A DNA stretch of 19,728 bases from Escherichia coli (GTDB taxonomy: Bacteria; Pseudomonadota; Gammaproteobacteria; Enterobacterales; Enterobacteriaceae): the NCBI RefSeq assembly GCF_003334255.1, contig NZ_QOWU01000070.1; one strand, given 5' to 3'. The notes under the pieces were generated by a model. The model was not told where the DNA came from. It searched no databases and worked only from the letters and a program-made list of their open reading frames with translations. The first letter of the stretch is position 1. Each line of letters begins with the position of its first letter. Position numbers and translations under genes: made by a program. Below, one piece after another: positions 1-19,728 of this stretch.

Positions 1-59
1 TATTTTCCGAATGCATAATGACCTCCTCTGGAATATCCCACCAATGCTATAGTGAGTAT

Positions 60-3256: not shown

Positions 3257-3267
3257 CAGCGACTGTC

Positions 3268-3600
3268 TCAGCGTCCCATTAAGTCTCTTCGCAGAGTGTT
3301 TGCAAGTTCTGTAATGGCAACGAGGACCTCTGCATACTCTTTATCTCCCGTGCGTTTTCCTTCCACAAACAGATGCTTCTGCAGGTGACCAAGACGCATC
3401 AACTCTTTCAAAAAATCTTCATCAATGCGGGCATTTATCTGTTTTCCCAGCACAGTTTTTCTTATCAGAGTTGAAACTGTCAGTCCGTTTTTTTCTGCCT
3501 TTTCTTTAACAATCTCAGCCTCTTCTGGTGAAAAACGAACAGCAATGAGGACATTCTTTTGCCGTTTCTCACTGCCATTTCGGTTTTTCTTCTCACTCAT
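3268..3600 (-). CDS. nikA: Relaxosome accessory protein NikA (ribbon-helix-helix oriT-binding), 110 aa
   Basis: 110-aa product starting MSEKKNRNGSEKRQ with SD AAGGAG 6 nt upstream of the ATG at 3598-3600; the longer 139-aa ORF in the track would overlap the oriT repeat. Small basic protein immediately upstream of the relaxase, the R64 nikA-nikB arrangement. Confidence 0.85.
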   Translation of the reverse strand: MSEKKNRNGSEKRQKNVLIAVRFSPEEAEIVKEKAEKNGLTVSTLIRKTVLGKQINARIDEDFLKELMRLGHLQKHLFVEGKRTGDKEYAEVLVAITELANTLRRDLMGR

Positions 3601-3641
3601 GGTCTGCTCCTTACCAGGGTGTCGGGGCAAAGCCCTGACCA

Positions 3642-3700
3642 GGTGGTAATCGTATAGCCGTGCGTGCGCGGTTATACGATTACACATCCTGTCCCGTTTT
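3642..3700 (+). other. oriT: oriT: inverted repeat (arms 3646-3656 / 3673-3683) followed by nick-core-like ACATCCTG TCCCG
   Basis: 11-bp inverted repeat GTAATCGTATA / TATACGATTAC, then 8 bp later ATCCTG (3686-3691) resembling the MOBP nic core (RP4 ATCCTG|C); sits between nikA and the leading region. Nick position 3691|3692 is inferred by analogy only. Confidence 0.6.
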
Positions 3701-3832
3701 TCAGGCCATTATAGCCTGTTATTTTTGTGCATCATAGTCTTATGCAGACGGCAGAGGCAGGGCGCAGCCCTGCCAGGAGGCAGTTTTTGGTGATAAAATC
3801 AGGCTTCAACATGAAACGGAGAGAAAGTGCCA

Positions 3833-4168
3833 ATGGCTTCTAAAAAATTTTACTCAGATGATGACATCCAGCTGGCAAAAGCTGCTTTATCGGAATTGCC
3901 GGACCTCACCGCTCAACGGAAAACATTGCGTGATTTTCTTGATGCCATTCGTGATGACATCATTGTCCTGGTAAGGACAAAGGGTTATACACTGACAGAT
4001 GTTCGTGACACGCTCAAAAATGCAGGGTATGAAGTAGGAGAGAAAGCACTTCGTGACATTATTCGGGAAGCAGAATCGAAAAAACCATCCCGCCGTTCTT
4101 CCTCTAAAACAGCACCTAAAAAGACAGATTCAGGCAGGAAAGATGGCATCGATATGAACAACAATTGA
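3833..4168 (+). CDS. Hypothetical small basic protein (possible DNA-binding), 111 aa
   Basis: ORF with ATG at 3833 preceded by GGAGAGAAA; C-terminal lysine/arginine/serine-rich tail; stop directly followed by the perfect palindrome GATGTGAC ga GTCACATC (4167-4185). Function not recognised. Confidence 0.6.
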   Translation: MASKKFYSDDDIQLAKAALSELPDLTAQRKTLRDFLDAIRDDIIVLVRTKGYTLTDVRDTLKNAGYEVGEKALRDIIREAESKKPSRRSSSKTAPKKTDSGRKDGIDMNNN

Positions 4169-4212
4169 TGTGACGATGTCACATCGTGTTCTGAGATTAT
4201 GATGATTACAGA

Positions 4213-4249
4213 AAAAAAAGCCCCGGCATAAATACCAGGGCTTTTCTGT
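4213..4249 (-). terminator. Rho-independent terminator for the minus-strand leading-region transcript
   Basis: On the minus strand: stem AAAGCCCTGG / CCGGGGCTTT with one mismatch, followed by a run of 8 T; located just after the stop of the 4254-5102 gene. Confidence 0.7.
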
Positions 4250-4253
4250 TTGA

Positions 4254-5102
4254 TCAGACTCGTGGCGGCAATGCACCAGGATAATGACGTGCAATAATAT
4301 CATTCAGTTTTTCAACAAGGTCAGGACACTTAAAGACAATATGTACGGTCCCTTTCTGGTAGCCACGCACCGTAAAATATTCCCCTTCAAACAACTCACC
4401 GATATTGTCGCCGTTCCCGAGATATTCACCATACTGCGCCCCGATGCTGTTCCTGAAGTCAGGAACGTTGCGTCCCTCCAGCAGATAAAACGGACGTACC
4501 AGGTCATCCAGTGCCTCCCGTCCGCTGCAGTCCAGCGTCACACGCCCGTTACTCCAGCGGTACAGCAGGTTTTCAATAATGATTTTCTTGCCCAGACGGC
4601 AGGGATTATTGGTTCTGTAATCCCATGACAATTTCCGGTAGACATCAATCAGTCCCTGTTCAAATGTCTGCATCTTGCTGGCATTCAGATGGCGAAAAGT
4701 TGCCAGTACATTGTCCAGGGTGATTTCAGGACAGGTGTCGCTCATCAGCTGGCTGTTCCACTCATCACGCTGGCATGAACTCATGAAGGTGTACATCCCC
4801 GTATCCGCCATCAGGCGGTCCCAGATTTTACGGTCGGCAAGACGGGTGATATTCTTTTTTGCTTCTTCCGGTTTATCCATGCATCGAACGGAGTCAGTCA
4901 CGCAGTCTTCAAACCCGTAGAGAAAAATGTCACCAGAAGCATCGAGCAGAATCCTGCGTGCTGTCGCCAGGCATTCCATCGCCTGCATGAACAGTGCAAT
5001 ACCTTCGTTACGCTGCGCGATAATGCGGTCGATGGCCACAGACGGAATAATATCTGTCGTGCCGGCAGTATTCAGGTCAGCAGTGGGTAAAGTCTGATTC
5101 AT
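4254..5102 (-). CDS. Hypothetical protein, first gene of the leading region (possibly DUF4942-like), 282 aa
   Basis: Long ORF; ATG at 5100-5102 with SD GAGGAG 8 nt upstream (the track start is a GTG one codon earlier). No methyltransferase, HExxH or nuclease motif seen by eye. The family assignment is from memory and weak. Confidence 0.75.
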   Translation of the reverse strand: MNQTLPTADLNTAGTTDIIPSVAIDRIIAQRNEGIALFMQAMECLATARRILLDASGDIFLYGFEDCVTDSVRCMDKPEEAKKNITRLADRKIWDRLMADTGMYTFMSSCQRDEWNSQLMSDTCPEITLDNVLATFRHLNASKMQTFEQGLIDVYRKLSWDYRTNNPCRLGKKIIIENLLYRWSNGRVTLDCSGREALDDLVRPFYLLEGRNVPDFRNSIGAQYGEYLGNGDNIGELFEGEYFTVRGYQKGTVHIVFKCPDLVEKLNDIIARHYPGALPPRV

Positions 5103-5152
5103 CACATTGTCTCCTCATCGTCACGACTGCCGGGTCAGCCAGGTCATTTCCC

Positions 5153-5463
5153 GGAGGAGCGAAGCTCCTTCTGCCGTCCGGGTCTTCGGGGATTTCCCCG
5201 CAGTGGACCTTTCCGACGGGGGACGCTCACCACGTCACGGGGCAGTTGTCCGGGGGCAGACGCAAAAGTTTTTGACGCCTGCGGCAAAAAGTTTTGTGGC
5301 TGGTACATCTCTCCCCTGGACGACTGAAACGGGATGTGGTCGTGTATGTACCCCCGGAAAGTCCGTCTGCGGAGAACAGGCCGCAGTGCGGCGGCAGACA
5401 GGCAGAGACAGCTGCGCCATCAGGCGCAGTGGCATTACACACCGTCAGGTGTGCAGGGAGCGC
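5153..5463 (+). promoter_or_regulatory. Structured GC-rich element resembling a single-stranded-DNA promoter (Frpo/ssi type), copy 1
   Basis: No credible coding despite many overlapping ORFs; dense hairpins (GGAGC gaa GCTCC, CGGGGAttTCCCCG, CTGCGCC atca GGCGCAG, CACACC gtca GGTGTG); contains TTGACG inside a hairpin; paralogous to 8317-8626. Confidence 0.6.
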
Positions 5464-5578
5464 CGCATCCGGCGCGACTGAAGAAAAACGACGGCACAAC
5501 AATGGCATGTGGTGGTCACTGGCACACCACTCCCGCACAGGTGAAAACAGAGAAAACCGCACGACATCTGCAATTAAA

Positions 5579-5667
5579 AAAAGTGAAATTTCTTCACTTT
5601 TTCACACTTATTTTTCGCGCTGATTTGGTGATTATGGTGATAAAATAAAGTGAAGTTTTTTCACTTT
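5579..5667 (+). promoter_or_regulatory. Twin operator-like palindromes and promoter upstream of the HTH gene
   Basis: Two copies of AAAGTGAA-N5/6-TTCACTTT (5579-5600 and 5647-5667) flanking an AT-rich -10-like stretch, ending 15 bp before the ATG at 5682. Confidence 0.55.
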
Positions 5668-5681
5668 TTCAAAGGTGTTTT

Positions 5682-5933
5682 ATGACCGGCTGGGAACTGC
5701 GAATCTGGCGAAAAAGCATGCTCTGGTCACGCGAAAAAGCGGCCAGAGAATTTGGCGTGACGCAGAGAACATGGCACGCCTGGGAAAATGCGGAACAGGT
5801 GGATGTCACCGTCTGGAGGACCACCCAGGCACTTTCAGTCCGTGACCTGCTGCCTCACATGCAGGGGATGCGTAAGGCAGATATCATCAGGCGACTGGAA
5901 AATGAACTGGGGGAAACGGCAGAGGATGTGTGA
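5682..5933 (+). CDS. Small helix-turn-helix (XRE-like) DNA-binding protein, 83 aa
   Basis: ATG with AAAGGTG SD; N-terminal segment ELRIWRKSMLWSREKAAREFGVTQRTWHAWEN fits an XRE-type HTH; preceded by the twin palindromes. Confidence 0.65.
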   Translation: MTGWELRIWRKSMLWSREKAAREFGVTQRTWHAWENAEQVDVTVWRTTQALSVRDLLPHMQGMRKADIIRRLENELGETAEDV

Positions 5934-5963
5934 GCGTGATTCACAGCCTGGCTGAATGCCAGG

Positions 5964-6122
5964 CTACTGCTCATCAGGAAACAGCTTTTTCAGTTCTTCA
6001 CCGGAAAGTCCCGTGACCTCCTGAATCCGTTCCGGCGGCCAGCCCATATTCCAAAGCCGGCAGGCTATTTCCCGCGCCACTTCAAGTGCGCCTTTTTGAA
6101 TAAGACGTTCTGCAATCGTCAT
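5964..6122 (-). CDS. Free-standing RpnS-like small protein (paralog of the Rpn C-terminal domain), 52 aa
   Basis: MTIAERLIQKGALEVAREIACRLWNMGWPPERIQEVTGLSGEELKKLF parallels the C-terminal tail of the adjacent Rpn protein; own ATG at 6120-6122 with SD CAGGAG; separated from rpn by a terminator hairpin. Confidence 0.6.
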   Translation of the reverse strand: MTIAERLIQKGALEVAREIACRLWNMGWPPERIQEVTGLSGEELKKLFPDEQ

Positions 6123-6146
6123 GCTGTTTGCTCTGCTCCTGCTGAC

Positions 6147-6172
6147 AAAAAAGCCCGGGATTTTGCCGGGCT
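6147..6172 (-). terminator. Rho-independent terminator immediately after the rpn stop codon
   Basis: Minus strand: stem AGCCCGG / CCGGGCT (6152-6172) followed by TTTTT (6147-6151). Confidence 0.6.
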
Positions 6173-6184
6173 TTGTGGTTCTCA

Positions 6185-7147
6185 TCAGTAAGTGATTTTC
6201 TTCAGTTCGTCATCGGAAAGTCCGGTAGCCTGCTTAATCTGCTCCGGCGTCATCCCCATTTTCTGAAGCTGGCACGCAATAGCCAGGGCTTTTTCAAGCG
6301 CTCCTTCCATGCGTCCTTCCATGCGTCCTTCCATGCGTCCTTCCATCCTGCCTTCCTGGCGACCTTTTTGCTCAAGACGTTCTGCGATAGTCATCAGTTT
6401 ATCCTCATGCTGCGGCAGACGCTCAGCCAGCGCCCGCATAAATTCCGGTGATACAGAGTCCCCTGCGTTAACGATGTAATGAATCAGAACACGCACCTGC
6501 TCGTCTGAAATTTCCACCATGACCTGCGGGAGTTTGTCCAGCAGCTCCATCATGTCACGATGGCGGATATGCTTCATCAGCAGCGTCAGTGCGGCCATCC
6601 GGCGATGGTTCATGATTTCATTGTCATCAACGACAGTGATATCAACCAGCGGAAACGGCTTTGTGTATATTTTAGCCGCAAGTGCCGGATTCTCAAAACA
6701 GTCCAGCCAGTTCATGCTGTACGGGTACGGGCTGCGCTCACCGTGATAGAACAGCACCGGAATCACCAGTGGCAACGTTTTGTGCTGCTCCAGATGTCTC
6801 TGCATCGCCGCCACACTGTAGCGTAACATGCGAAAAGGCATGTACAGATTTTCTGTGCTCTGGTGCTCGATGAGCGTATAAACATAGCCGTCTTCACCCC
6901 CGGTGGTTTTCACGCTCCAGAGGATATCGCTGGCGTACTGATGCAGGTCCGGCTCTACAAAGGTGGCGGGTTCCAGCTTCAGCGTGGACAGGTCGCACAA
7001 CTGCCGGTACTCCGCCGGAAGATGCAGTTCCAGAAAATCTCTGGCGACGTCGGGATTCGCCAGGAACGACCGGAACGCGGCATCATGCGGCGTGGGCGTT
7101 GTGGTGGTTTTCTTCTTACTCACTTTCCCTCCATGAGTTATTATCAC
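6185..7147 (-). CDS. Rpn-family (YhgA-like, PD-(D/E)XK) recombination-promoting nuclease with internal RpnS-like start
   Basis: N-terminus TPHDAAFRSFLANPDVARDFLELHLPAEYRQLCDLSTLKLE and the core ASDILWSV ... YVYTLIEHQS closely parallel E. coli RpnA as I recall it. C-terminal repeat linker and tail are present; an internal ATG at 6392-6394 with SD GAGGA would give a 69-aa C-terminal product. True start may be the GTG at 7121-7123 (SD GGAGGG). Confidence 0.8.
   Translation of the reverse strand: MIITHGGKVSKKKTTTTPTPHDAAFRSFLANPDVARDFLELHLPAEYRQLCDLSTLKLEPATFVEPDLHQYASDILWSVKTTGGEDGYVYTLIEHQSTENLYMPFRMLRYSVAAMQRHLEQHKTLPLVIPVLFYHGERSPYPYSMNWLDCFENPALAAKIYTKPFPLVDITVVDDNEIMNHRRMAALTLLMKHIRHRDMMELLDKLPQVMVEISDEQVRVLIHYIVNAGDSVSPEFMRALAERLPQHEDKLMTIAERLEQKGRQEGRMEGRMEGRMEGRMEGALEKALAIACQLQKMGMTPEQIKQATGLSDDELKKITY
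6302..6349 (-). repeat. In-frame 12-bp tandem repeat (3 perfect + 1 variant unit) encoding (EGRM)n in the Rpn linker
   Basis: Plus-strand unit TCCTTCCATGCG repeated head-to-tail; translates on the minus strand to RMEG repeats (QEGRMEGRMEGRMEGRMEG). Confidence 0.9.
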
Positions 7148-7204
7148 CGGAATTATACGCCCGTGCGGTACGCACCTGCCACGGGCAGAAAGAAGGGAAC
7201 AGAT

Positions 7205-7534
7205 TTACAGTCGTGTATACAGCCCGGTATCCCGGGTAAAAAGCCACTGCAGCTGATCGCAATAAATCCCCTCGTGCTCCGATATCTGCGCTATCCGGGA
7301 ACCCTGTTTGCTGTAAAACGTCACCGTGTAATCATCGGCAAACGTTAATTTGATCCGGACAATATTAATATTATTTTTCGCAAAATATGACGGTAACTGA
7401 AAGCATAAACCGCATTCACCATTATCATCAAAATAAGCCAGATTTTTAGCGCCGGTCATAACAACAAATCGCTGGCTCCCCAGCTGTCCGAGAATTGTTT
7501 GAGCGACATGTTCAGCATAACTCATATTCTTCAT
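7205..7534 (-). CDS. Hypothetical protein, 109 aa
   Basis: ORF in an AT-rich block behind structured element copy 2; weak SD; no recognisable motif. Confidence 0.6.
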   Translation of the reverse strand: MKNMSYAEHVAQTILGQLGSQRFVVMTGAKNLAYFDDNGECGLCFQLPSYFAKNNINIVRIKLTFADDYTVTFYSKQGSRIAQISEHEGIYCDQLQWLFTRDTGLYTRL

Positions 7535-7600
7535 TCTAATATCCTGACGAGAGATATGCCGCAGGAGACACGACTACCTGCGACACTGATAATTGGGGAC

Positions 7601-7918
7601 TCAAGTTCTGTTACGCACAACTGCAAAGAGATATTTTTTCTGGCTTATAACTTTGCATTTTATTAAACGGGCTATTTCCCTGTAGTCTTTATTAAGAGGA
7701 ATATGAATCATGTCCCCGTTCAGTTCATTAAAAACGCACCCTTTTATATATAACGTCTCATTCATGATAAAACCATACATTGAAAAATGCTGATTTTCAT
7801 ACTCTTTACTGATTAAGTGAAAATATCCCTCCAGCAGTTCCTGCGGGGGATGTGGATCAATCATCCAGTTATCACCAATATATGAACATACTTCTGTTAT
7901 CGTTGTCTGAAATGTCAT
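7601..7918 (-). CDS. Hypothetical protein, 105 aa
   Basis: ORF with SD GGGGG 5 nt upstream of the ATG; strongly AT-rich relative to neighbours; no recognisable motif. Confidence 0.65.
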   Translation of the reverse strand: MTFQTTITEVCSYIGDNWMIDPHPPQELLEGYFHLISKEYENQHFSMYGFIMNETLYIKGCVFNELNGDMIHIPLNKDYREIARLIKCKVISQKKYLFAVVRNRT

Positions 7919-7975
7919 GTTACCCCCTGAAGTAAAAACTTATGATGTGAAATGGGGCGTTTCCGCCCCCTGGTA

Positions 7976-8110
7976 TCACATGGCGTAGCCTCTGAGGTGG
8001 TCCAGCCACCAACAGAACTCGTGCCATTCGTCGCCTTTCATTGGCGGAATGCGTGTGGGTTGTCCTTTGACAACCGCATCAGCAAGGGTTACGATTTGTC
8101 TGAGTGACAT
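7976..8110 (-). CDS. Hypothetical small protein, 44 aa (MSLRQIVTLADAVVKGQPTRIPPMKGDEWHEFCWWLDHLRGYAM)
   Basis: ATG at 8108-8110 preceded by AAGGAT; the longer 75-aa ORF in the track would read through the upstream GC hairpin motif. First gene downstream of structured element copy 2. Confidence 0.5.
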   Translation of the reverse strand: MSLRQIVTLADAVVKGQPTRIPPMKGDEWHEFCWWLDHLRGYAM

Positions 8111-8316
8111 AATCAATATCCTTACAAAGGTTGTTGATATCCGTGCAAAGGGGTGTTCCCGCCCCCCTGGCACACCCACTAACCTCCTTTTCCTTCCCGG
8201 CATTCCCTCACGCTGTGCGTGATTTACATCGTTCTCACCTCCTTCACTGGGTTGTTTCTGTTCGCTAAAAAATGGTCAGGTTGTTAAAGAGCGGCACGGT
8301 ATGTTCAGGCATCTTC

Positions 8317-8626
8317 ACAGGAGCGAAGCTCCTTCTGCCGTCCACTTCTTCGGGGTTTCTCCCGCTGTGGACCTTTCCGATGGGGGCCCGTTTACCGCCT
8401 CACGGGACAGCTGTCCGGGGGCGGACGCAAAATTTTTAGCCGGGTTCATGGCTAAAAATTTTGTGGCCGGTGCATCTCACCCTGGACAGATGGAACGGGA
8501 GGGGGTTACGTCTGCCCCCCGGAAAGTCCACAGCGGGAAACAGGCCGCAGGGGTGGCGGCAGGAGGGAGGACTGCTGCGCCATCAGGCGCAGTTTCCTCA
8601 CACACCGTCAGGTGTGCAGGGAGCGC
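8317..8626 (+). promoter_or_regulatory. Structured GC-rich element resembling a single-stranded-DNA promoter (Frpo/ssi type), copy 2
   Basis: Shares blocks with copy 1 (GGAGCGAAGCTCCTTCTGCCGTCC, GTGGACCTTTCCGA, GTCCGGGGGC-GACGCAAAA, CCCGGAAAGTCC, CTGCGCCATCAGGCGCAGT, ACACACCGTCAGGTGTGCAGGGAGCGC). Contains a perfect 14-bp hairpin CAAAATTTTTAGCC / GGCTAAAAATTTTG (8428-8463). Confidence 0.6.
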
Positions 8627-9015
8627 AGGTCACGGCGCGACAGGGGCGGCGCGACCGGAACGGTCGCTGCAAGCCGGGTTTTCACGCATCGGACCGTAGC
8701 GGCAGCCCGAAACCGCGCCAGCGGGTTCGGCGGAGACTGGCGGGTGCGCCAGCAGCTGCCCGTCGGAGTCGGGCCTGACGACCGGATGCCGCCAGGCAGC
8801 CGGGAGCCGAAGTGGGCGCAATAAAAGACAGCCAGAAACGGTGACAGTGTCACGGAATATCACTCCTGTTCCCTGCATACAGCCATACACTACCTTCTGA
8901 CCGGAAAGCCGGGCCGGCAGCGCCGCAGGCGCTGCACCCCGCGTTTCCGGCAGGCGTCAGCCTGCCTGGGGTTTTCGCGCGGGCTGACAGGCGGCCTCCA
9001 CCGCCTGCCCCTGTA

Positions 9016-9207
9016 TCACCTGTTTCTGCTGCCCTGAAGGATGTAGTGACCGCCCAGGAAAACCGCCTGCTGATTCGCCACAAAATCGCAGATTTCATCA
9101 ACAATCTGCGCGGTGGTGAGCGGTTTCTGCCCCATTTCACGACGCCGCGCATTAATCACGGCCCTGTAATTACGCAGAATTTCGCGGGTTTCTGTGCTGA
9201 TATTCAT
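9016..9207 (-). CDS. Hypothetical small protein, 63 aa, translationally coupled to the upstream gene
   Basis: ATG overlaps the stop of the 9204-9626 gene (ATGA). Confidence 0.6.
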   Translation of the reverse strand: MNISTETREILRNYRAVINARRREMGQKPLTTAQIVDEICDFVANQQAVFLGGHYILQGSRNR

Positions 9208-9626
9208 GACATCGTCTCCCCGTCCAGCGCCTGTAACACAACGTCCATTGCTTCGCGTTCCTCCCTGACGAATGCGTCACCGTCGCCCCCGTTCTCACTC
9301 CCGACGGCATACAGGCGCTTCATTTCACTGCCTGCCAGCGCCATCACTTTTTCCAGCATCACCGCCGGGACTGTCACATGACGGCTGGCGCGCTTTTCTT
9401 CCATCAGTTCACGAACAACGTCGTGAACAACGCTGACATCCGCACCATGCTCAAAGGCATCGTCCAGTCGCTGCATGACGGTTTCCAGCTCATCGTCTGA
9501 CAGGTTCCAGTCCTGGGCTATGTGACGCACATCCCCACGGGTCAGCACCACGGCAAAAACGCATTCACTGTCCGGCACGTCTGTATCCAGTACATCGCGG
9601 ATGATTTCTTTAACAGTACAGTACAT
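9204..9626 (-). CDS. Acidic hypothetical protein, 140 aa (possibly DUF1380-like, a family often next to ArdB/KlcA genes)
   Basis: ATG with SD AAGGAGACG; acidic composition; family name from memory only. Confidence 0.65.
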   Translation of the reverse strand: MYCTVKEIIRDVLDTDVPDSECVFAVVLTRGDVRHIAQDWNLSDDELETVMQRLDDAFEHGADVSVVHDVVRELMEEKRASRHVTVPAVMLEKVMALAGSEMKRLYAVGSENGGDGDAFVREEREAMDVVLQALDGETMS

Positions 9627-9672
9627 GTTCTCGTCTCCTTTACAGGGGCGGCATTGCCGCCCCGTCCGTTAA

Positions 9673-10098
9673 TCAGTCAAGTGCAGCGTAAATCGCGTTG
9701 CATTCGGGGTGAAATTCGATGTGGCTCCACAACTGCGCATCGCGCATCCTGTACAGGTGTGTCAACCCTGCATCCCCGCTGTCGTGGTACAGCCACAACT
9801 GGCGGTTAATCACAAGGGAAGTCAAAATGATGCCTGCGGCATCAGCACTCACGGTACGGTCAAACCAGTTTTCACCGTTGACCAGATGAAAACGGTCGCC
9901 ATCCGGCATCATGTAACCGCCACCGTCCGGCAGGCGGATGAAGTGCCAGAATCCGCCTTCATATTCCGGCATCATTTTTTTCGCCAGCGCGTATACAGAC
10001 GCTTCGGCATACAGAAAATCCAGGCCAAACAGGTAAGGCAGAAAAGACAGACGGTCGCACTCTTCAACGTTCAGAGTGACAGGTTTCGCATACTGCAT
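9673..10098 (-). CDS. ArdB/KlcA-family antirestriction-like protein, 141 aa
   Basis: Start MQYAKPVTL with SD GGAGG 6 nt upstream (the track ORF begins earlier at 10179). Motifs FLPYLFG, EGGFWHFIRLPDGGGYMMPDGD and SADAAGIILT match my recollection of the KlcA/ArdB/YfjX family. Confidence 0.7.
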   Translation of the reverse strand: MQYAKPVTLNVEECDRLSFLPYLFGLDFLYAEASVYALAKKMMPEYEGGFWHFIRLPDGGGYMMPDGDRFHLVNGENWFDRTVSADAAGIILTSLVINRQLWLYHDSGDAGLTHLYRMRDAQLWSHIEFHPECNAIYAALD

Positions 10099-10140
10099 GG
10101 GATTTCCTCCGTTGTTCACATATTCCGCGACACCGGGCGG

Positions 10141-10364
10141 TGCCGTGCCTCCATCTTTGCCGGGCCTGCAGGGTTGCAAGGGCGCAAGGGAAGCCGCAGC
10201 CTGACGCGCACGGCTGACGGGAGTTGGAGGGTGAGACCGCGAAATCTGAGCGGGTGAACGACCGGAAAATCACGGCAGACGGGAAGGAGGGACCGGGTGA
10301 CCGCAGCGGTTCACCTTACCTTGCAACCCGCCCGCAGAAGCCCGGCTACGATGGAGGCACGGCA
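10141..10364 (+). promoter_or_regulatory. Long imperfect hairpin (about 225 bp) upstream of the klcA-like operon; possible third ssDNA promoter/ssi element
   Basis: Outer arms TGCCGTGCCTCCATC (10141-10155) and GATGGAGGCACGGCA (10350-10364) are exact reverse complements; inner arms GCCGGGC...GGTTGCAAGG / CCTTGCAACC...GCCCGGC also pair; nested palindromes CGGGTGAACGACCGG and GGTGACCGCAGCGGTTCACC. Confidence 0.5.
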
Positions 10365-10511
10365 CAGCCCGCACACGACGCTGAGGCCACATAACTGAAA
10401 ACCCACAAGGCCATGCCCCGCATGGCCGGGTAAAGCGGAGCCTGCGGCGACATCCTTTTGCTCTTTCCGGGGACCGGCTGGAAAAGGCGGAGATTTTCCC
10501 CGCCAGCGTCA

Positions 10512-10835
10512 TCATTTCCGGATTTTCGCCAGTGCATCCGCCATGCTGCGGATTTCAGTCCGGGCTTCCAGGACCACCTCCCGCAGAATATCCCGGTCAA
10601 ACCAGCGACGGGACGGTTCATCAGGTATACGCAGCACATCGCAGGCCAGCCCACTGGACAGGATATGCTCCACACACTCACTGACCAGATACATTTCCAC
10701 CGACGAAAAACGAGCGCCACGGTTCAGAATGGCATCGAGCACCACGGGCAGATTTTCGTCATCTTCATCAAGCCAGCAGGGGTAATCGCTTTCCTTCACA
10801 ACCAGACGAAAGCGGCGCGTCTGGCGGGTCAGCAA
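10512..10835 (-). CDS. Hypothetical acidic protein, up to 107 aa (start uncertain)
   Basis: ORF with TTG start in the track and no clear SD; contains the acidic stretch [12 protein letters not shown]; real start could be internal. Confidence 0.45.
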
Positions 10836-11114
10836 CGTCTGACCGGTGGTGGTCAGCGCCGCCCGGATACGCGGGCATCTTCTGCCACTTGGTAACAGAT
10901 GCTTCGTACTGCATTGCGCACTGCATCAAGAACTGCCCTGATTTCGTCTTCGGTCAGCCATTCTCCGGCATACGGGAAAAACACCTGTGTTCCGTCTGCC
11001 GGAAGTACCGGCAGCGACTGCCACTGACTGCCGGACAGTACCAGTTCCGCCCCGGTTCCGGTCAGTTTCTGAATGGCGGAGGCCAGGAGCGGCGGCAGTA
11101 CGCCGCCGTGACGG

Positions 11115-11756
11115 TTGATAAGTAACGTCCGGAAAAACTTCAGCGTCATTCTTGAGCGTACGGTACGCGAACTCAACGGCGAGTCCTGCATATCCCTGGA
11201 AGAAGCACCACCGGCAAAACAACAGATTGTCTGTAGTCGCAGTTTTGGTGAACGAATCACAGACAAAGATGCCATGCACCAGGCTGTTGTTCAGTATGCA
11301 GAGCGGGCCGCAGAGAAACTACGTGGGGAGCGTCAGTATTGCCGGCAGGTGACGACATTTGTACGGACATCCCCCTTTGCAGTAAAAGAACCCTGTTACA
11401 GCAATGCCGCTGTGGAAAAGCTTTCATTGCCCACACAGGACAGCCGGGACATTATTGCCGCCGCATGCAGAGCCTTAAACCATGTCTGGCGTGAAGGGTA
11501 CCGCTATATGAAGGCAGGAGTCATGCTGGCTGATTTCACTCCATCGGGTATAGCGCAGCCGGGATTATTTGATGAAATCCAGCCCCGTAAAAACAGTGAA
11601 AAGTTAATGAAAACACTCGATGAACTGAACCAGTCGGGAAAAGGGAAAGTGTGGTTTGCGGGGCGAGGAACCGCCCCTGAATGGCAAATGAAACAGGAAA
11701 TGCTATCGCCTTCGTATACAACACAATGGACTGAGATCCCCATTGCTTCATTCTGA
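11115..11756 (+). pseudogene. impB: impB/umuC/mucB-family error-prone polymerase gene, 3' half only
   Basis: [13 protein letters not shown] ... [11 protein letters not shown] ... TTFVRTSPFA ... PTQDSRDIIAAA ... YMKAGVMLADF ... LFDE ... WQMKQEMLSPSYTT aligns to the C-terminal ~210 residues of MucB/UmuC as I recall them. An in-frame TGA at 11109-11111 and non-homologous sequence upstream show the N-terminal half, and any impA/impC, are missing. Confidence 0.85.
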
Positions 11757-11760
11757 TATA

Positions 11761-12153
11761 TCAGAATAATTTTTTCATTTTAAGACGCACATCATTCATT
11801 GCCTTCTGCACCGAATCCGTAGCAGAAGGAGGCATTTTTTCAGCAGATTGCGAAGCACCGAGTTCAGTCAACACAGCTCTGATATCGGCCTGAGAAGGCT
11901 TCCATCCAGTCGTCTGACTGAGTAAGGTTACAACCTGATCTGCTGAAAACTCCTCGCTCAAAATGGCAGTCAGCAATACAGGCAGGCGAGGATCAAGTTG
12001 GTGTAACGCCATTCCAGAAATAAATGCATTCCGGAACAGCTCACCACGCTCAGAACGCGGAACGGACTCTATCGCTTCCAAAGTTTGAAAGTCTGCAGCT
12101 TTTTCCGGATGCAGATAAAGTGTGTATTTTTTCCTTTTCCGTTCATCGTCCAC
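11761..12153 (-). CDS. stbB: Partition adaptor StbB/ParR-like protein, about 131 aa
   Basis: Immediately downstream of the actin-type ATPase gene; GTG at 12151-12153 with SD AAAGAGGAG 7 nt upstream, just after the stbA stop (the track ATG at 12189 would overlap stbA by 32 nt). Assignment rests mainly on position. Confidence 0.55.
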   Translation of the reverse strand: MDDERKRKKYTLYLHPEKAADFQTLEAIESVPRSERGELFRNAFISGMALHQLDPRLPVLLTAILSEEFSADQVVTLLSQTTGWKPSQADIRAVLTELGASQSAEKMPPSATDSVQKAMNDVRLKMKKLF

Positions 12154-12157
12154 AATA

Positions 12158-13129
12158 TTACTCCTCTTTGAAAGCCGCGATAGCTTCAACCAGTGCTGTC
12201 TGTGGCGACTCCATCATCACTACTTTTTGCCCAAGATGGTGCCATGCCGTTTTTATCGAATCATAGATCAACGGGGCCCCACCACCGACAACATAAACAC
12301 GATTCACATGATGGAAATCACCGAGCTCATTGACTACTTGCTCCCCCAGACTGGCAATAGCCCCCTCAATGGTATTAAGGACCAGATCAGTTTTTGTTTC
12401 GTCATTTATAACCTGCCGAACAAAGTCCGGGTCATTACGACGTTTAATCAATTCATCTGCAACGAGGAAACTGGTATCACTGGATGCCATGCGCAATGCA
12501 CTCATTGCAGCTTTCGTAACTGAAGACACACCAATGCCAGAATTACCATGAATGGCACTTACAGAGTCAAATTGACCAACGATAACACCAACATCAAGCG
12601 TAGTGCCGCCAATATCAACTACCAGCGATTTTTCGAACTGACCAACTTTATCCATGACCAGACGAGAAAACACAGCTGGCAATGATTCAGGCATCACATC
12701 AACGTGTTCAATGGTGAAAACATCGCCTTTATTAAGACGAATCGGCCTCATTAAATTCTCAATTTTACGCTGAATGTTGAGTTCATTTTTTTGACACTCT
12801 TTCGTGTAGAACTCACTGATAGGCAAAGTCACAGTCAATGATACAGGCTGAGGCGCTAATCCACTATTCAGTAAAGCGTGATGCACAGCTAACAGGTTAA
12901 CATCCGTATATTGATACTCAATATGAGTCGTAAGAATAGATTGGTTACTAACTTCATCATACGTGTATTTTTTACCATCCAGTTCATAGTTAAATGTCTG
13001 GCGAATCCCTAACCCGTCAACCTTCCATCCATGACGAAATGAGTTTTGCGACAACGACTTACAGATTTTCCCATTGTCATTCCATGCCAACTTGATTGTT
13101 GTTGAACCATCATCGCAGTATACGTTCAT
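12158..13129 (-). CDS. stbA: Actin-like plasmid segregation ATPase (ParM/StbA family), 323 aa
   Basis: N-terminus MNVYCDDGSTTIKLAW parallels R1 ParM (MLVFIDDGSTNIKLQW), with phosphate motifs DIGGTTLD and VVGGGA; SD AAGGGG upstream of the ATG. Confidence 0.85.
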   Translation of the reverse strand: MNVYCDDGSTTIKLAWNDNGKICKSLSQNSFRHGWKVDGLGIRQTFNYELDGKKYTYDEVSNQSILTTHIEYQYTDVNLLAVHHALLNSGLAPQPVSLTVTLPISEFYTKECQKNELNIQRKIENLMRPIRLNKGDVFTIEHVDVMPESLPAVFSRLVMDKVGQFEKSLVVDIGGTTLDVGVIVGQFDSVSAIHGNSGIGVSSVTKAAMSALRMASSDTSFLVADELIKRRNDPDFVRQVINDETKTDLVLNTIEGAIASLGEQVVNELGDFHHVNRVYVVGGGAPLIYDSIKTAWHHLGQKVVMMESPQTALVEAIAAFKEE

Positions 13130-13357
13130 CTATAGCCCCTTAAATACTCAATCTGAGTAAATCACTGTTTCTGGTTGCAAGGTAATACTCAATTTGAGCA
13201 CCATCATAGTTATGAAATCACAAAACACAAGTATTATTTATTACATCACATGACTCACTTCATATTTCATACTTCATAAATGTGAACGCATATTGACACC
13301 TCAGGTTACCGTGTCAAAATATCATCATACTTCACACATCACATTTATGAGGTTGCA
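13130..13357. promoter_or_regulatory. AT-rich divergent promoter / centromere-like repeat region between stbA and parA
   Basis: Direct repeats AATACTCAATCTGAGTA (13143-13159) and AATACTCAATTTGAGCA (13183-13199), plus repeated ACTTCATA / ACATCACAT motifs; lies between divergently transcribed partition operons. Confidence 0.55.
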
Positions 13358-14002
13358 ATGATTACTGTAGTTGGTGGGAACAAAGGTGGTTCAGGGAAAA
13401 CTACCATTGCATCAAACCTGGCTATTGCTCTCGCAAATAAAGGAAGGGAAGTCTGCCTGTTAAACGGAGATCTACAACGAACAGCCGCAAAACATCATGC
13501 GGAACGAGAAGCTGCAGGACTGTTACCAGCAATAACCCTTGTTGAGAAATTTGATAATCTGACACAAACACTACAGGCTCTGAATGAAAAGTTCGATGAT
13601 GTAATAGTGGATGTCGCAGGAAGAAACTCAAAGGAATTCATAACGAGTGGAGTTGTCGCACATCAAATAATTGCGCCACTACAGTGTTCTCAACCAGATC
13701 TGGATACTCTTACAGAACTAGAACAACAGATAGACGCAATGCGTAACCTTAACCCGGAACTTAAGGTTTATTGTTTACAAAGTATGGCAACAACCAATCC
13801 GGTTTTGAGGGGAAATGAGAGAAAAGAATTCCTTGAATATCTTGAAGAATTCCCAACAATTCAAGTCCTGGATTCAGTTATTTGTTTCAGAAAAGTCTAT
13901 CGCGATTGCATGAGCAACGGCACCGGTGTAGTAGAAACGAACAATACAGCAGCCAAAGCAGAAATTGAACATTTAATGAATGAGGTATTTGGCCCATGGT
14001 GA
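13358..14002 (+). CDS. ParA-family (small, ParF-like) partition ATPase, 214 aa
   Basis: Deviant Walker A VVGGNKGGSGKTT near the N-terminus; SD GAGG upstream of the ATG. Confidence 0.85.
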   Translation: MITVVGGNKGGSGKTTIASNLAIALANKGREVCLLNGDLQRTAAKHHAEREAAGLLPAITLVEKFDNLTQTLQALNEKFDDVIVDVAGRNSKEFITSGVVAHQIIAPLQCSQPDLDTLTELEQQIDAMRNLNPELKVYCLQSMATTNPVLRGNERKEFLEYLEEFPTIQVLDSVICFRKVYRDCMSNGTGVVETNNTAAKAEIEHLMNEVFGPW

Positions 14003-14271
14003 AAAAACCCAGCCAGCAAGCATTAAACAGAGCTGCAGTTACGGTAGAACAAGCAGAGGCTCTGGCTCAGCGCCTTGCGGATAAACCATACGGCGCGCCG
14101 GAAAAAACCGAACCAGAAAAACAATGTCGGACGACAATCTCTCTTGGTGAAAGCATGCTTGTCACAATAGAAGATCTGGCATTGAGGAATAAACGCAATG
14201 GTAAAGATCCAAAAAATGTAAGTGCCATCGTCAGAGTAGCCCTTGAGCAATACTTAAAAACACTAACGTAA
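13996..14271 (+). CDS. Small partner protein of ParA (possible ParG/RHH-type centromere-binding protein), 91 aa
   Basis: Start overlaps the parA stop (ATGGTGA), indicating translational coupling; small, charged. Function inferred from position. Confidence 0.5.
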   Translation: MVKKPSQQALNRAAVTVEQAEALAQRLADKPYGAPEKTEPEKQCRTTISLGESMLVTIEDLALRNKRNGKDPKNVSAIVRVALEQYLKTLT

Positions 14272-14340
14272 TAATCAAGAAGTTATTACTTATGAAATCA
14301 CACTTGTGAATTCATACTGTTTAAGCACCCTTGCATACAA

Positions 14341-14371
14341 GAGATCACATATTGCAGTGGTCTCTTTTATT
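14341..14371 (+). terminator. Rho-independent terminator after the parA operon
   Basis: Stem GAGATCAC / GTGGTCTC (one G-U pair), 8-nt loop, followed by TTTTATT. Confidence 0.6.
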
Positions 14372-14401
14372 ACAGAATAATTCATAATTATGATTTGTGA
14401 A

Positions 14402-15184
14402 TTATGCGTGTCTGTTTTTCAGCATTGTGACCGCATCGGACTCAGGCATCAAAAACTGCACCCGGTGCCGTGCAGCCACATCCAGTGCAAACACCTTCGT
14501 GTAGACCTCCGTTGAGCTGATGGACTTATGCCCCATCAGGCTCTGCAGGACCTTCAGCGGTATACCGGCATACAGCATGTGCATCGCATAGGAATGGCGG
14601 AACGTATGTGGCGTGACCGGGACAGAGAACGTCACACCATCAGCGGCAGCGGCGGCAACCGCCTCCCCAATCCAGGTCCTGACCGTTCTGTCAGTCACTT
14701 CCCAGATCCGCGCTTTCTCTGTCCTGCCTGTTCGTTTATTACGCCGTTCCATGGGGATTTTCAGTGTTGCCACCATCGTCTGCAGCTGGCTGACGTACCA
14801 GGAGTCGGAGAGCGGAACCAGCCGGTGAGTCTGCTGACCGGCGGGCATTCTTCCTGCCGTCCTGGCGGCTTTTTCTGTCCGCTGCTTCAGAGTGGCCAGT
14901 TGCACAAACGGATACGGGGGCGCAAGCGAAAAATCCCCCCGCGTCAGCGCCAGTGCTTCATTAATGCGCGCACCGGTGTTCCACAGTGTGGCCAGCAGCA
15001 TCTTGCGGCGCAGATCCGGGACGTAATGGAGCAGGGCGCTCACTTCAGGGGCCAGCAGGTATTTTGGCAGTTCATCATGAACCATCGACATCTGGCGGAG
15101 TGCCAGCGCTGCCGGATAATCGATGGCAACAGGAAGCTGAGCAGCATCCCGGGCATGGTGGATCGGTGCCGGCAGGTGCTGCAT
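14402..15184 (-). CDS. Tyrosine site-specific recombinase (XerD/ResD-like), 260 aa
   Basis: C-terminal catalytic signature HTFRHSYAMHMLYAGIPLKVLQSLMGHKSISSTEVYTKV and upstream TLWNTGARINEAL (R...H..R..Y). The ATG at 15182-15184 sits 1 nt after the upstream gene stop; the track ORF begins earlier at 15337. Confidence 0.88.
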   Translation of the reverse strand: MQHLPAPIHHARDAAQLPVAIDYPAALALRQMSMVHDELPKYLLAPEVSALLHYVPDLRRKMLLATLWNTGARINEALALTRGDFSLAPPYPFVQLATLKQRTEKAARTAGRMPAGQQTHRLVPLSDSWYVSQLQTMVATLKIPMERRNKRTGRTEKARIWEVTDRTVRTWIGEAVAAAAADGVTFSVPVTPHTFRHSYAMHMLYAGIPLKVLQSLMGHKSISSTEVYTKVFALDVAARHRVQFLMPESDAVTMLKNRHA

Positions 15185-15185
15185 A

Positions 15186-15599
15186 TCAGTGTTCACTCCA
15201 CGGGGAAACGTCGGGCAGGTTTTCCACAACACGGTACTTTCCCGGATAACGGAGCTGGTTACCGCCATGCGTCCGGACGGTGACAACAAAACCCCCTCCC
15301 TGGTTGTTTTCGGGGAGCAGGCGATCGCACTGCTCACTCAGCATGTGGATCACAAACGGCGCATCGCTGCCGTCTTCAAATACCAGTTCCAGCGCATCGC
15401 GGCCATTCAGCGTTCCCTTACTGATGATGACGTACTCAGCCCCCCGCATCTCCCTGAGTAAATGTTTTGCCGCATCCGGGACAAGCAGCCTGGCTGCGCC
15501 GGCATTCCAGCTGAGGTAGACATATCCGGCCTGCGCCTGTACAGACTGCCAGTAATCCGTTCTGGCGACAGCCTGACCTTCATTCTCAATAAAAAACAT
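15186..15599 (-). CDS. Hypothetical protein encoded directly upstream of, and co-transcribed with, the recombinase, 137 aa
   Basis: ATG at 15597-15599 with strong SD AAGGAG 7 nt upstream; stop adjacent to the recombinase start (TGATATG). Confidence 0.7.
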   Translation of the reverse strand: MFFIENEGQAVARTDYWQSVQAQAGYVYLSWNAGAARLLVPDAAKHLLREMRGAEYVIISKGTLNGRDALELVFEDGSDAPFVIHMLSEQCDRLLPENNQGGGFVVTVRTHGGNQLRYPGKYRVVENLPDVSPWSEH

Positions 15600-15682
15600 G
15601 GGTGACTCCTTTTTTCTTTTCCGGGCAGGGACGGTCATGCGATAACGTCATCCATCATCACTGCCCTTACCGTCACGCCGTC

Positions 15683-15929
15683 TGATAACATCATGCCGTT
15701 ATCATCATCACCATGATAACAAGCATCCATATAACCACGCCGTTAAATTACCGGAGAGCCGTTTCCGTCAGATCCGACTTTCCGGAATATCACAACTTTC
15801 CGGAAGTGTACCACGCTGAGAAAATAATCATATCGCTGTTTTCCGCCCCTGCGCGGCGCATCACAGGTCAGGGAGATGACACAACATATAGTGTCATCAG
15901 CAGCTGAATTCAGCACTACATATTGTGCT
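15683..15929. other. Cluster of inverted-repeat sites with 8-bp spacers; candidate recombination/resolution site for the adjacent tyrosine recombinase
   Basis: TGATAAC-ATCATGCC-GTTATCA (15683-15704); GATGACAC-AACATATA-GTGTCATC (15875-15898); AGCAC-TACATATT-GTGCT (15912-15929); plus the perfect palindrome GCTGAATTCAGC (15903-15914) and two TTTCCGGAA copies near 15779-15806. Confidence 0.4.
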
Positions 15930-16036
15930 GACAGGAGGTGGCGTTATGTGGGGGGAGAGGAAGATCCTGAACTGCCGGAAACCGGATCTGCGCGGCGGGG
16001 AACGGGCATGAAATATGATAATTAAGCAACATACAC

Positions 16037-16130
16037 AAAATCATATCAGATATGATTTTTATCATTTATGGTAAATCATATCTGATATTATAAGAATTCA
16101 ATAACCAATAAATCATATATAATATGATTT
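16037..16130. promoter_or_regulatory. Three operator-like palindromes AAATCATAT-N1-3-ATATGATTT upstream of the 16167 operon
   Basis: Perfect palindromes at 16037-16059 (11-bp arms) and 16110-16130 (9-bp arms); a degenerate copy at 16074-16090; all in an AT-rich stretch ending ~35 bp before the ATG at 16167. Confidence 0.55.
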
Positions 16131-16166
16131 TTACCTGTCAGAACATTATCAGATGGAGTGTGCAGG

Positions 16167-16424
16167 ATGGATGAAGAACGGGTGTTTTCACTCAGCTATG
16201 AACAACTGACCCGGTTTGCGGAACGACGCATCCGGGAATGCAATCTGGACAGCCAGGGCGCAATTTATCTCTGCGAGTCAGCCAAAGCCGGAGCCGTGCT
16301 GATCTTCTGGCATGAACTGGCCATAAATGGCTATGCCTCAATGAATGCCATAAAGAGACAGGAGCTCATTGACGCCGACTTTCAGCGCCTCAGAAAGCTC
16401 ATCTGGCCGGAGGATGACAGGTAA
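16167..16424 (+). CDS. Hypothetical protein, 85 aa, first gene of a two-gene operon
   Basis: ATG at 16167 with SD GGAGTG (the track begins at a GTG at 16158); stop overlaps the next start (TAATG). Confidence 0.6.
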   Translation: MDEERVFSLSYEQLTRFAERRIRECNLDSQGAIYLCESAKAGAVLIFWHELAINGYASMNAIKRQELIDADFQRLRKLIWPEDDR

Positions 16425-17014
16425 TGACCCAGAGCCGCCGACCGTCGCCACTGCAGCGGAGAGTGCTGATTGTGCTGGCTGCGCTTGATGAAAAACGGCC
16501 GGGCCCCGTGCTGACGCGGGACCTGGAACGGGTGCTGGAGCGAAGCGGGGAAGCCCCGGTCTACGGGCCAAACCTGCGCGCCTCCTGCCGTCGTCTGGAG
16601 GATGCCGGCTGGCTGCGTACCCTGCGCGCTCTAAACCTGCAGCTGGCAGTGGAGCTGACGGACGCCGGCCGGGCCGTGGCACAGCCTCTGCTGCTGGCAG
16701 AACAGGACCGCCTCCGGGAAGAACAGCGTGCGGCAGAAGTCGTCGTACTGCCGCTGGTCCCGGCAACAGGTCTGCCCGCAGACGGCACTTCTGCCACTGA
16801 TCTGGCGGTGGAGCTGAACGGCATGACGTATCAGGCCTGCCGTGGGGATTTTGTGGTGCGTCTCGACGGCAGCACCTGTCTGCAGTTATGGAATAAAGAA
16901 GGCAGAGTGGTACGCCGGGAGGGCGATCCACTGGAAGTGGCGCAGTGGCTGCAGGCCTGTCACGATGCAGGAATGGAGGTTCGTGTGCAGGTTAATGAAA
17001 GCACCAACCCGTAA
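16424..17014 (+). CDS. Hypothetical protein, 196 aa, conspicuously GC-rich relative to its neighbours, possible N-terminal HTH
   Basis: Codon third positions strongly G/C-biased in this frame (CTG, GCC, CGC), supporting plus-strand coding over the antisense ORF 16338-16931. N-terminal LQRRVLIVLAALDEKRPGPVLTRDLERVL resembles a DNA-binding helix pair. Confidence 0.6.
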   Translation: MTQSRRPSPLQRRVLIVLAALDEKRPGPVLTRDLERVLERSGEAPVYGPNLRASCRRLEDAGWLRTLRALNLQLAVELTDAGRAVAQPLLLAEQDRLREEQRAAEVVVLPLVPATGLPADGTSATDLAVELNGMTYQACRGDFVVRLDGSTCLQLWNKEGRVVRREGDPLEVAQWLQACHDAGMEVRVQVNESTNP

Positions 17015-17031
17015 AAACATGCCTGCACGGT

Positions 17032-17379
17032 TTACACATCATCCCATGGTGGCAGCCGGTTAACTTTCCTGCGCCACCAGTGGAGAGAGGCCATAAGCAG
17101 TCCGTACAAAAAACCATTCGTGATACTTATAATAATGGCCTCACCTGCTACCATTCCTGACGGCCCCCAGTAGATAAACCACATTGCACATCCCCAGGAA
17201 ATGCCCCATAAGCCCCCCGTCAGCACCGTGACCTGCCAGAACGGCATAAAGGGTAATGGCGGAAGCCGGATACCCAGCCGCCAGAGAATACGCAGAAGAG
17301 GAGGGGCATAATTGCTCCGCCACATCTTTTTGCTGTCCATCAGGGCAATGGCCCGTGCTTTTTTCTGCTCAAAGGTCAC
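17032..17379 (-). CDS. Small hydrophobic membrane protein, 115 aa
   Basis: GTG start with SD GGAGG 7 nt upstream; at least two hydrophobic, Trp/Gly-rich segments (VTVLTGGLWGISWGCAMWFIYWGPSGMVAGEAIIISITNGFLYGLLMASL). Confidence 0.6.
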   Translation of the reverse strand: MTFEQKKARAIALMDSKKMWRSNYAPPLLRILWRLGIRLPPLPFMPFWQVTVLTGGLWGISWGCAMWFIYWGPSGMVAGEAIIISITNGFLYGLLMASLHWWRRKVNRLPPWDDV

Positions 17380-17497
17380 AGGAGCACCTCCGTTCCATGA
17401 TGTAAACGTGACACAGCTTATTGTTATTGATTATTATTATCATGCTGTGATTATGTTGTCACGCACCGGTACACGATAACAATAAAGGAGAAACCAG

Positions 17498-17845
17498 ATG
17501 AAACTGGATATATCTGTAAAGTATTTACTGAAGAGCCTGATACCAAGCCTCATTATTCTTACAGTTTTTTATCTGGGATGGAAAGATAACCAGGAAAATG
17601 CAAGAATGTTTTATGCGTTCATCGGATGCATTATCAGTGCCATTACTTTTCCTTTTTCAATGAGGATAATACAGAAAATGGTAATAAGGTTTACAGGGAA
17701 AGAATTCTGGCAAAAAGACTTCTTTACAAATCCAGTTGGCGGAAGCTTAACTGCTATATTTGAATTATTCTGTTTCGTTATATCAGTTCCTGTGGTTGCC
17801 ATTTACTTAATTTTTATATTCTGCAAAGCCCTTTCAGGAAAATGA
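17498..17845 (+). CDS. Colicin immunity protein of the small E1/Ia/Ib type, 115 aa (likely colicin Ib-type)
   Basis: Strong SD AAAGGAG; small hydrophobic protein with three predicted membrane segments; convergent with and 18 bp from the end of a colicin pore-domain ORF, the classical pore-former colicin-immunity arrangement. Confidence 0.65.
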   Translation: MKLDISVKYLLKSLIPSLIILTVFYLGWKDNQENARMFYAFIGCIISAITFPFSMRIIQKMVIRFTGKEFWQKDFFTNPVGGSLTAIFELFCFVISVPVVAIYLIFIFCKALSGK

Positions 17846-17862
17846 AAGGGCATCATTATGTG

Positions 17863-18375
17863 TCAGATACCAATAAGTTTATTGACCTGCTCAATAAACT
17901 TATCATTAACAAGCGCACTCACAGCAGCCATAATAATTGCAAAACCCAGAATACCTACAGGGGTTCCCAGCATGACGGAAAACGTCCATGCTGTAACTGC
18001 TGAAGCAGCTCTTCCTGCTGCCAGTGATTCAAGTTTTACAAAAAATGGACGCCAGTTGTCCGTTTTTACAGCCTTTTGTAACTCCACAGCAACATCATAA
18101 CGATCAATAACTTTTCCGGTAAAACCAAATGCCTTACTGAACAGCTTAAAATTCTCCGCCATATGGACCTGATTAATAGCTTCCAGGGCTTTAGAAATGG
18201 CCATGCGATCTTGTATGCTATATTTCTTGTTCAGATTATTACGGAATTTATCAAAAGCGTTCAGTGCATCATCCACACTCTTAATTTGTTTCCCTTGAGA
18301 TACAGAAGCCAGCTCCTTAGAAAGTTCGGATGCTTGTTTACCCGAGTAGGCAGCCTGGCGGCTGCGGCTTGTCAT
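17863..18375 (-). pseudogene. Pore-forming colicin, C-terminal channel domain only (170 aa); N-terminal translocation and receptor domains absent
   Basis: TDNWRPFFVKLESLAAGRAASAVTAWTFSVMLGTPVGILGFAIIMAAVSALVNDKFIEQVNKLIGI matches the hydrophobic helical hairpin and C-terminal LIGI ending of channel-forming colicins as I recall them. An in-frame TAA three codons upstream of the first ATG shows the rest of the gene is missing. Confidence 0.7.
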
Positions 18376-18430
18376 GGCCTGGAATTACCGTTATAAAAAA
18401 AGATAATGTCATTGTCTTTCAGGTAGTTAT

Positions 18431-18796: not shown

Positions 18797-18802
18797 TGCT
18801 TC

Positions 18803-19728
<926 letters not shown>

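Follow-up and report, generated by a model that had tools for sequence, protein, structure and literature searches.

Whether a short reading frame in the leading region of a conjugative plasmid encodes a small anti-defence protein of its own, or is what remains of a larger gene, is the question raised by an ORF of 107 codons on the minus strand at 10512–10835. The window, by which we mean the whole stretch of 19,728 nucleotides that was analysed, is the oriT-proximal (leading) region of an Escherichia coli IncK2/Z-type conjugative plasmid; its full 19.7 kb is 100% identical to NZ_CP060058.1 and NZ_CP060062.1, apart from the IS insertions of those two plasmids, and 99.9% identical to NZ_CP116070.1. 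The initial annotation had described an acidic ORF of no recognisable family and had allowed both for a genuine product and for the decayed remainder of a gene broken by a nearby junction. We conclude that the ORF almost certainly belongs to the 3' portion of a dead ychA copy, 5'-truncated and frameshifted, that is, to an ordinary pseudogene.

The reading frame and its intact counterpart

The ORF listing and translation bear out the position of the frame, its length of 107 aa and the DEDDEN patch within its product, which ends in ADALAKIRK followed by the stop codon. The features that bear on its origin are:

10512–10835, minus strand: the 107-aa ORF, corresponding to YchA residues 150–256 and the stop codon
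10512–11129, minus strand: ychA pseudogene, codons 52–256 of a 256-aa protein, 5'-truncated and frameshifted
10853–11129, minus strand: upstream half of the pseudogene, YchA residues 52–146, then VSGRR, then a stop
10872–10873: 1-bp deletion causing the frameshift, placed by alignment to the intact gene and by reconstruction
10512–11128: pseudogene H4P50_RS26490 of NZ_CP060062.1 (Germany) as mapped to the window, 100% identical DNA, called by PGAP
Same diagnosis by PGAP in sister plasmids: PID00_RS28000 in NZ_CP116070.1 (China) and V6S26_RS01270 in NZ_CP145705.1 (Switzerland)

Length by itself is weak evidence of coding. The window holds 43 ORFs of at least 107 aa, compared with 6.1 ± 2.3 in shuffled versions of it, and a coding origin can be assigned to this one because of its homology to a conserved 256-aa protein, not because of its length. 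The idea of a chance ORF with no coding history, to which the roughly six ORFs of that size expected in a shuffled window would lend some colour, is already refuted by the 100% identity to that protein, by the full-length match of the parent protein to PHROG 8919 (E = 5.5e-133), and by a dN/dS of about 0.18 among intact copies.

The intact counterpart is a 771-nt gene in the IncI-gamma/K1 plasmid NZ_CP145695.1 (record segment 3913–4683), which encodes the 256-aa "hypothetical protein" WP_001546461.1. The homology and the frameshift are both observed directly in the alignment to this gene: every base of 10512–11129 is the same except for one that is missing at 10872/10873, where the plus strand reads ACGCCGGGCATC in the intact gene and ACGCGGGCATC in the window. 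When that single base is put back, the translation runs for 205 aa and is 100% identical to residues 52–256 of WP_001546461.1. In the window as it stands, the frameshift is followed by five out-of-frame codons, VSGRR, and then by a stop at 10853–10855. A homology search that joined the ORF with the adjacent minus-strand fragment 10853–11110 and allowed for frameshifts, as had been proposed for this locus, thus recovers residues 52–146 and 150–256 of one protein with a 1-bp deletion between them. Compared with the nearest intact allele, not one base of the remnant has been substituted, and its decay is therefore recent.

This alignment also accounts for the start of the ORF. The TTG was called mechanically as a start codon and is the internal Leu150 of intact YchA; it is reported as a start because it is the first start-like codon after the out-of-frame stop. 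A Shine-Dalgarno-like sequence was not found 5' of it (the minus strand there reads ...CCGGTCAGACG and then TTG), just as the initial annotation had noted. The acidity described there is mild in the ORF product, with a pI of 5.2 and 20 D+E residues against 17 K+R.

Compared with intact YchA, the copy in the window has no codons 1–51, no start codon and no upstream operon, and its frame is interrupted. A complete YchA protein has about 254–275 aa, with an N-terminal helix and an invariant W22-P23 pair; residues 1–51 are gone from the window copy, and its sequence homology runs through the remaining codons once the one nucleotide is restored. Truncation and frameshift relative to intact orthologues, together with the loss of the start codon and the promoter, are what define a pseudogene, and the feature is already known as such in public records. 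In three plasmids PGAP calls the identical DNA a pseudogene of 617 nt, 'frameshifted; incomplete; missing N-terminus', and the feature described here does not differ from H4P50_RS26490. We also considered a programmed frameshift and rejected it, since intact copies do not carry the 1-bp deletion behind the shift, which is specific to this lineage.

If the frameshift were a sequencing or assembly error, the locus would encode a continuous, truncated YchA of 205 aa, possibly fused to an upstream ATG at 11149 or 11275. The missing base does fall in a short G/C run, and those ATGs are in frame with the upstream half. The same 617-nt pseudogene recurs, however, in at least three complete plasmids (one German, one Chinese, one Swiss) whose assemblies are independent, which argues against an assembly error; moreover, even an unshifted frame would lack 51 residues, including helix 2–19, the invariant W22-P23 and a beta strand, and neither ATG is preceded by a Shine-Dalgarno sequence. 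We regard an error of this kind as extremely improbable, and a real frameshift in a truncated gene as the appropriate description.

The deletion junction and its distribution

The abrupt end of similarity to intact ychA upstream of 11129 coincides with a junction, the surroundings of which are:

11128–11130: deletion junction at 11129/11130, 2-bp TC microhomology at 11128–11129, 4,588 bp missing
11128–11756, plus strand: 3' fragment of impB (Y-family / DinB-UmuC translesion polymerase), a pseudogene on the far side of the deletion
11761–13129, same strand as the remnant and upstream of it: stbB-parM operon

The ancestral layout is that of NZ_CP104518.1, a related IncK2/Z plasmid, and the same order is present in F and pESBL. 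On the strand of the leading genes, NZ_CP104518.1 carries DUF1281, a hypothetical gene, a DNA methylase, a 73-aa hypothetical gene, DUF1380 and a ychA gene of 258 aa, beyond which come the intergenic hairpin region, a klcA/ardB-type antirestriction gene, DUF1380 and more genes. On the opposite strand are a DinI-like gene (impC), umuD (impA) and the Y-family polymerase gene (impB; intact at 14155–15426), with stbB and parM after them. An M.EcoGIX-type methylase heads a same-strand cluster of closely packed genes in pESBL, F and IncK2/Z plasmids, and ychA closes it; intact ychA in the leading regions of IncK2/Z, IncI and IncF plasmids has 256–259 codons.

Aligned by blastn to NZ_CP104518.1, window positions 8319–11126 match 7399–10209 and positions 11128–18342 match 14798–22011, whereas 10210–14797 of that plasmid (4,588 bp) is absent from the window. 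The truncation and the junction are thus seen directly, and ychA codon 52 now adjoins mid-impB. With it have gone the first 51 ychA codons and the start codon, the ribosome-binding site, the operon promoter and the remaining operon with its M.EcoGIX-type methylase, as well as DUF1281, impC, impA and the 5' part of impB; neither the methylase cluster nor the region of its ssDNA promoter is present in the window. The suggestion that a larger gene had been broken by the nearby junction proved correct. The flanks at the joint read ...GTAACGTC then GCCAG on the ychA side and ...CATTCATC then CGGAAA on the impB side; the TC dinucleotide is their sole shared sequence, and homology on the impB side begins at window position 11128 (probe query position 49). 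In the sister plasmids PGAP describes the impB fragment as 'DinB/UmuC family... / DUF4113... incomplete; missing N-terminus'.

From these flanks the junction has the appearance of an illegitimate deletion through microhomology, not of an IS event. An IS-mediated origin was rejected, there being no IS end at 11129/11130 and nothing beyond the 2-bp microhomology. As a separate observation, IS content varies on the common backbone of NZ_CP116070.1, NZ_CP060062.1, NZ_CP145705.1 and CP055726.1, where the leading region can hold ISCro1/IS66 and the impB fragment ISEc12 or ISEc10 (IS21 family), and IS421 occurs as well; all of these insertions are absent from the window. The annotation of NZ_CP116070.1 also gives frameshifts for klcA and for the relaxase gene, neither of which is found in the window.

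The events most probably unfolded as follows. Illegitimate recombination at the 2-bp microhomology removed 4.6 kb in this plasmid lineage, a stretch that reaches from ychA codon 51 to mid-impB and takes in DUF1380, the 73-aa gene, the methylase, the hypothetical gene, DUF1281, impC and impA, and it left ychA with no start codon, ribosome-binding site or operon promoter. A further deletion of 1 bp, probably a later one, put the 205 codons that were left into two separate frames, and an ORF caller that takes the Leu150 TTG as a start reports a '107-aa acidic ORF' that begins with TTG and has no Shine-Dalgarno sequence. The joint also creates a chimeric ORF of 140 aa with an ATG start (10853–11275, minus strand), which runs antisense to impB and in frame over the junction into YchA residues 52–146. 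Neither a Shine-Dalgarno sequence nor promoter evidence was found for it, and it is probably meaningless.

The surrounding DNA is common and the junction is rare. A megablast search with 9600–11800 matched thousands of IncF, IncI and IncK plasmids, and the annotation under the matches names an antirestriction protein, a protein with DUF1380 and one for plasmid stability; intact YchA protein has matches in more than 5,000 plasmid records (IncF/IncI/IncK), and 3,759 of the 5,426 complete E. coli genomes carry ychA DNA. A 101-bp probe spanning the junction, by direct count, was found in only seven of the 72,556 plasmid records of PLSDB, from pig faeces, human blood, human stool and a rectal swab of ICU staff.

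A scan of the minus strand upstream of the remnant gave no promoter-like site exceeding chance expectation. Since stbB-parM lies upstream on the same strand and could read through, the remnant may nonetheless be transcribed. The C-terminal domain of YchA (residues 150–256) is still encoded whole, which counts against a reading as simple decay, and read-through combined with a non-canonical start could conceivably yield this domain with partial YchA activity; we consider this very unlikely, and the remnant is most probably untranslated and functionless.

Downstream hairpins and klcA

Between the remnant and the next gene lies a series of hairpins:

10487–10505, minus strand: small GC hairpin (GGCGGAGATTTTCCCCGCC) then TTTTCC, a few bases past the ychA stop
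10404–10427 (also delimited as 10409–10427), minus strand: the second of the small hairpins, GGCCATGC-ccc-GCATGGCC, which has a T-run and resembles a terminator
10134–10371, plus strand, which is the transferred strand: large imperfect hairpin or inverted repeat with 32-nt arms of 91% complementarity and additional inner arms
9673–10098, minus strand: klcA/ardB-type antirestriction gene, intact, 141 aa, downstream of the putative hairpin promoter

The first of these adjoins the stop codon of the ORF and is probably the 'third hairpin' beyond which the ORF had been placed. It is partly conserved in pESBL and F, and likely acts as a weak terminator of the ychA operon, although a terminator scan, which requires at least five T residues, did not call it.

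The large hairpin folds as single-stranded DNA with a predicted energy of -106 kcal/mol (z = -4.6), and the whole ychA–klcA intergenic region of the window is about 93% identical to its counterparts in pESBL and F. The operons of M.EcoGIX and klcA are strongly induced in fresh transconjugants from hairpin ssDNA promoters (Wen et al., PMC12672017), which have been divided into classes, with M.EcoGIX in class 3 and klcA and ardA in class 2 (PMC12672017). Because of this identity and the long ssDNA hairpin fold, 10134–10371 corresponds, as an ortholog, to the 'class 2' ssDNA promoter that drives klcA in pESBL and F. The putative hairpin promoter is intact although the ychA upstream of it is dead. 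The klcA protein is WP_077502116.1 in a 100% identical plasmid. A search of the whole window (1–19728) against Rfam at the gathering threshold matched no RNA family; hairpin ssDNA promoters are not represented in Rfam.

The remnant occupies the place that ychA has in F, in pESBL and in the IncK2/Z layout, just upstream of the hairpin intergenic region, with its putative promoter, and of the antirestriction gene. YchA and KlcA/ArdB (PF03230) share the leading region and the strand but no sequence or profile similarity, and klcA is a separate, intact gene in the window.

The YchA family and its C-terminal domain

The parent protein is named YchA in UniProt entries, in pESBL and on the maps of IncF33 plasmids, and is also known as NgrC or YubG. 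The pESBL copy is O3K_25862 (revised annotation "Hp11"), the product of which is 91% identical to WP_001546461.1, and the F plasmid copy is WP_001005032.1, at 55565–56341. Pfam gave no match to the parent protein or to 15 diverse homologues, even at E <= 10; the sole NCBIfam match was spurious, at 13 bits versus a cut-off of 540 bits; PADLOC contained no family matched by YchA; and sequence searches of the PDB, with the single protein and with a profile, returned nothing meaningful. The view that the ORF belongs to no recognisable family thus holds for Pfam, NCBIfam and PADLOC, but the protein is a member of the common and named YchA group, PHROG 8919 (function not known). In the plasmid literature that was searched, ychA occurs only as a map label or a table row, and ngrC and yubG only in irrelevant contexts. 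In the transposon sequencing of pESBL (PMC4288162 Table 2), ychA has a score of 1.00 for maintenance as well as for transfer and is classed as non-essential.

An exhaustive HMMER search across 1.84 billion representative proteins yielded no more than 176 at E <= 0.001; many are fragments, and full-length relatives reach down to 24% identity. Between intact F, IncK2/Z and IncI-gamma alleles dN/dS is 0.17–0.20, which indicates purifying selection on the intact gene. Three divergent homologues on plasmid-like contigs, each directly upstream of a gene for ArdA or KlcA/ArdB, are:

4383–5168, first contig: homologue with 24–31% identity
6001–6783, second contig: homologue with 24–31% identity
4303–5091, third contig: homologue with 24–31% identity

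In their neighbourhood are DUF1281, umuD with a Y-family polymerase, or ParM/StbB. Since it is kept at 24–31% identity, far beyond IncF, IncI and IncK plasmids, the association with leading regions and antirestriction genes appears to be old.

The AlphaFold2 model of YchA, built from an alignment of 15 diverse sequences (pLDDT 90.8, pTM 0.83), consists of two α/β units linked by a long helix (residues 111–143), and a search for a solved structural relative of this predicted fold found none. The 107-aa ORF spans the C-terminal domain, which is predicted as strand-strand-helix-strand-strand-helix (strands 149–154 and 158–165, helix 178–188, strands 191–201 and 206–218, helix 230–254) with an acidic, Trp-containing loop, WLDEDDEN. 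The DEDDEN patch sits in the loop formed by YchA residues 163–181 (window about 10743–10799, minus strand). All 15 diverse members that were compared have 5–10 D/E per roughly 20 residues in this loop, and 14 of them have a Trp there; its character is kept and its sequence is not. R153, E164 and W227 are invariant positions of the family in this part of the protein.

That the ORF coincides with a compact domain of the model, and that its acidic loop is conserved in character across the family, could suggest a genuine stand-alone product that starts at the TTG, an anti-defence protein 107 aa long; its position in a plasmid leading region, adjoining an antirestriction gene, fits as well. UniProt and AFDB also hold a 107-aa E. 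coli 'YchA' (A0A0A0FNN4) that is 99% identical across 107 aligned residues. This entry, though, is most simply an automatic call on a similarly broken gene, apparently a truncated ORF of like kind deposited elsewhere as a protein. The proposed start is codon 150 of a 256-aa protein with no ribosome-binding site before it, the frameshift that made the ORF boundary is known from no more than a handful of plasmids, the operon promoter was lost with the deletion, and the overall charge is mild. We therefore consider a real small anti-defence protein at this locus highly unlikely and retain the reading as a ychA pseudogene.

The acidic patch also invites comparison with DNA mimics. ArdA- and Ocr-type DNA mimics are extremely acidic. 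YchA shares with them (ArdA, PF07275; Ocr) the location in the leading region and a local acidic patch, but it has neither a match to PF07275 or any other Pfam family nor a strongly negative charge, and its predicted fold is a mixed α/β one with two domains. The net charge of whole YchA proteins ranges only from -16 to +4 (-5 and pI 5.4 for the parent protein; pI 5.4–5.8 for enterobacterial copies), too mild for an ArdA/Ocr-like mimic, and on that account this assignment was rejected.

The parent may be an early-expressed establishment or anti-defence factor. Our best guess, offered tentatively, is that intact YchA could act in this way by binding a host protein via its acidic loop. On the same tentative footing, the family could constitute a new type of such early-expressed factor, its fold being one for which no relative has been solved; this reading of the intact family is more likely than any residual activity of the broken copy.

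The assignment of the ORF to ychA removes a false candidate for a small anti-defence gene, which matters little for the window itself, and the odd TTG, the missing Shine-Dalgarno sequence and the neighbouring fragment are all explained by one broken gene. It also draws attention to a circulating IncK2/Z sublineage (the seven PLSDB plasmids, from pigs and humans) that has no methylase–ychA cluster, no impC, no impA and only part of impB. As this sublineage circulates without them, the lost leading-region functions are dispensable for persistence in nature, in agreement with the result of transposon sequencing in pESBL. YchA is among the most widespread leading-region proteins of plasmids in Enterobacteriaceae and is without a Pfam family, a solved relative or a published function; the family would be a reasonable target for experiments, by way of an intact copy rather than the remnant in the window.
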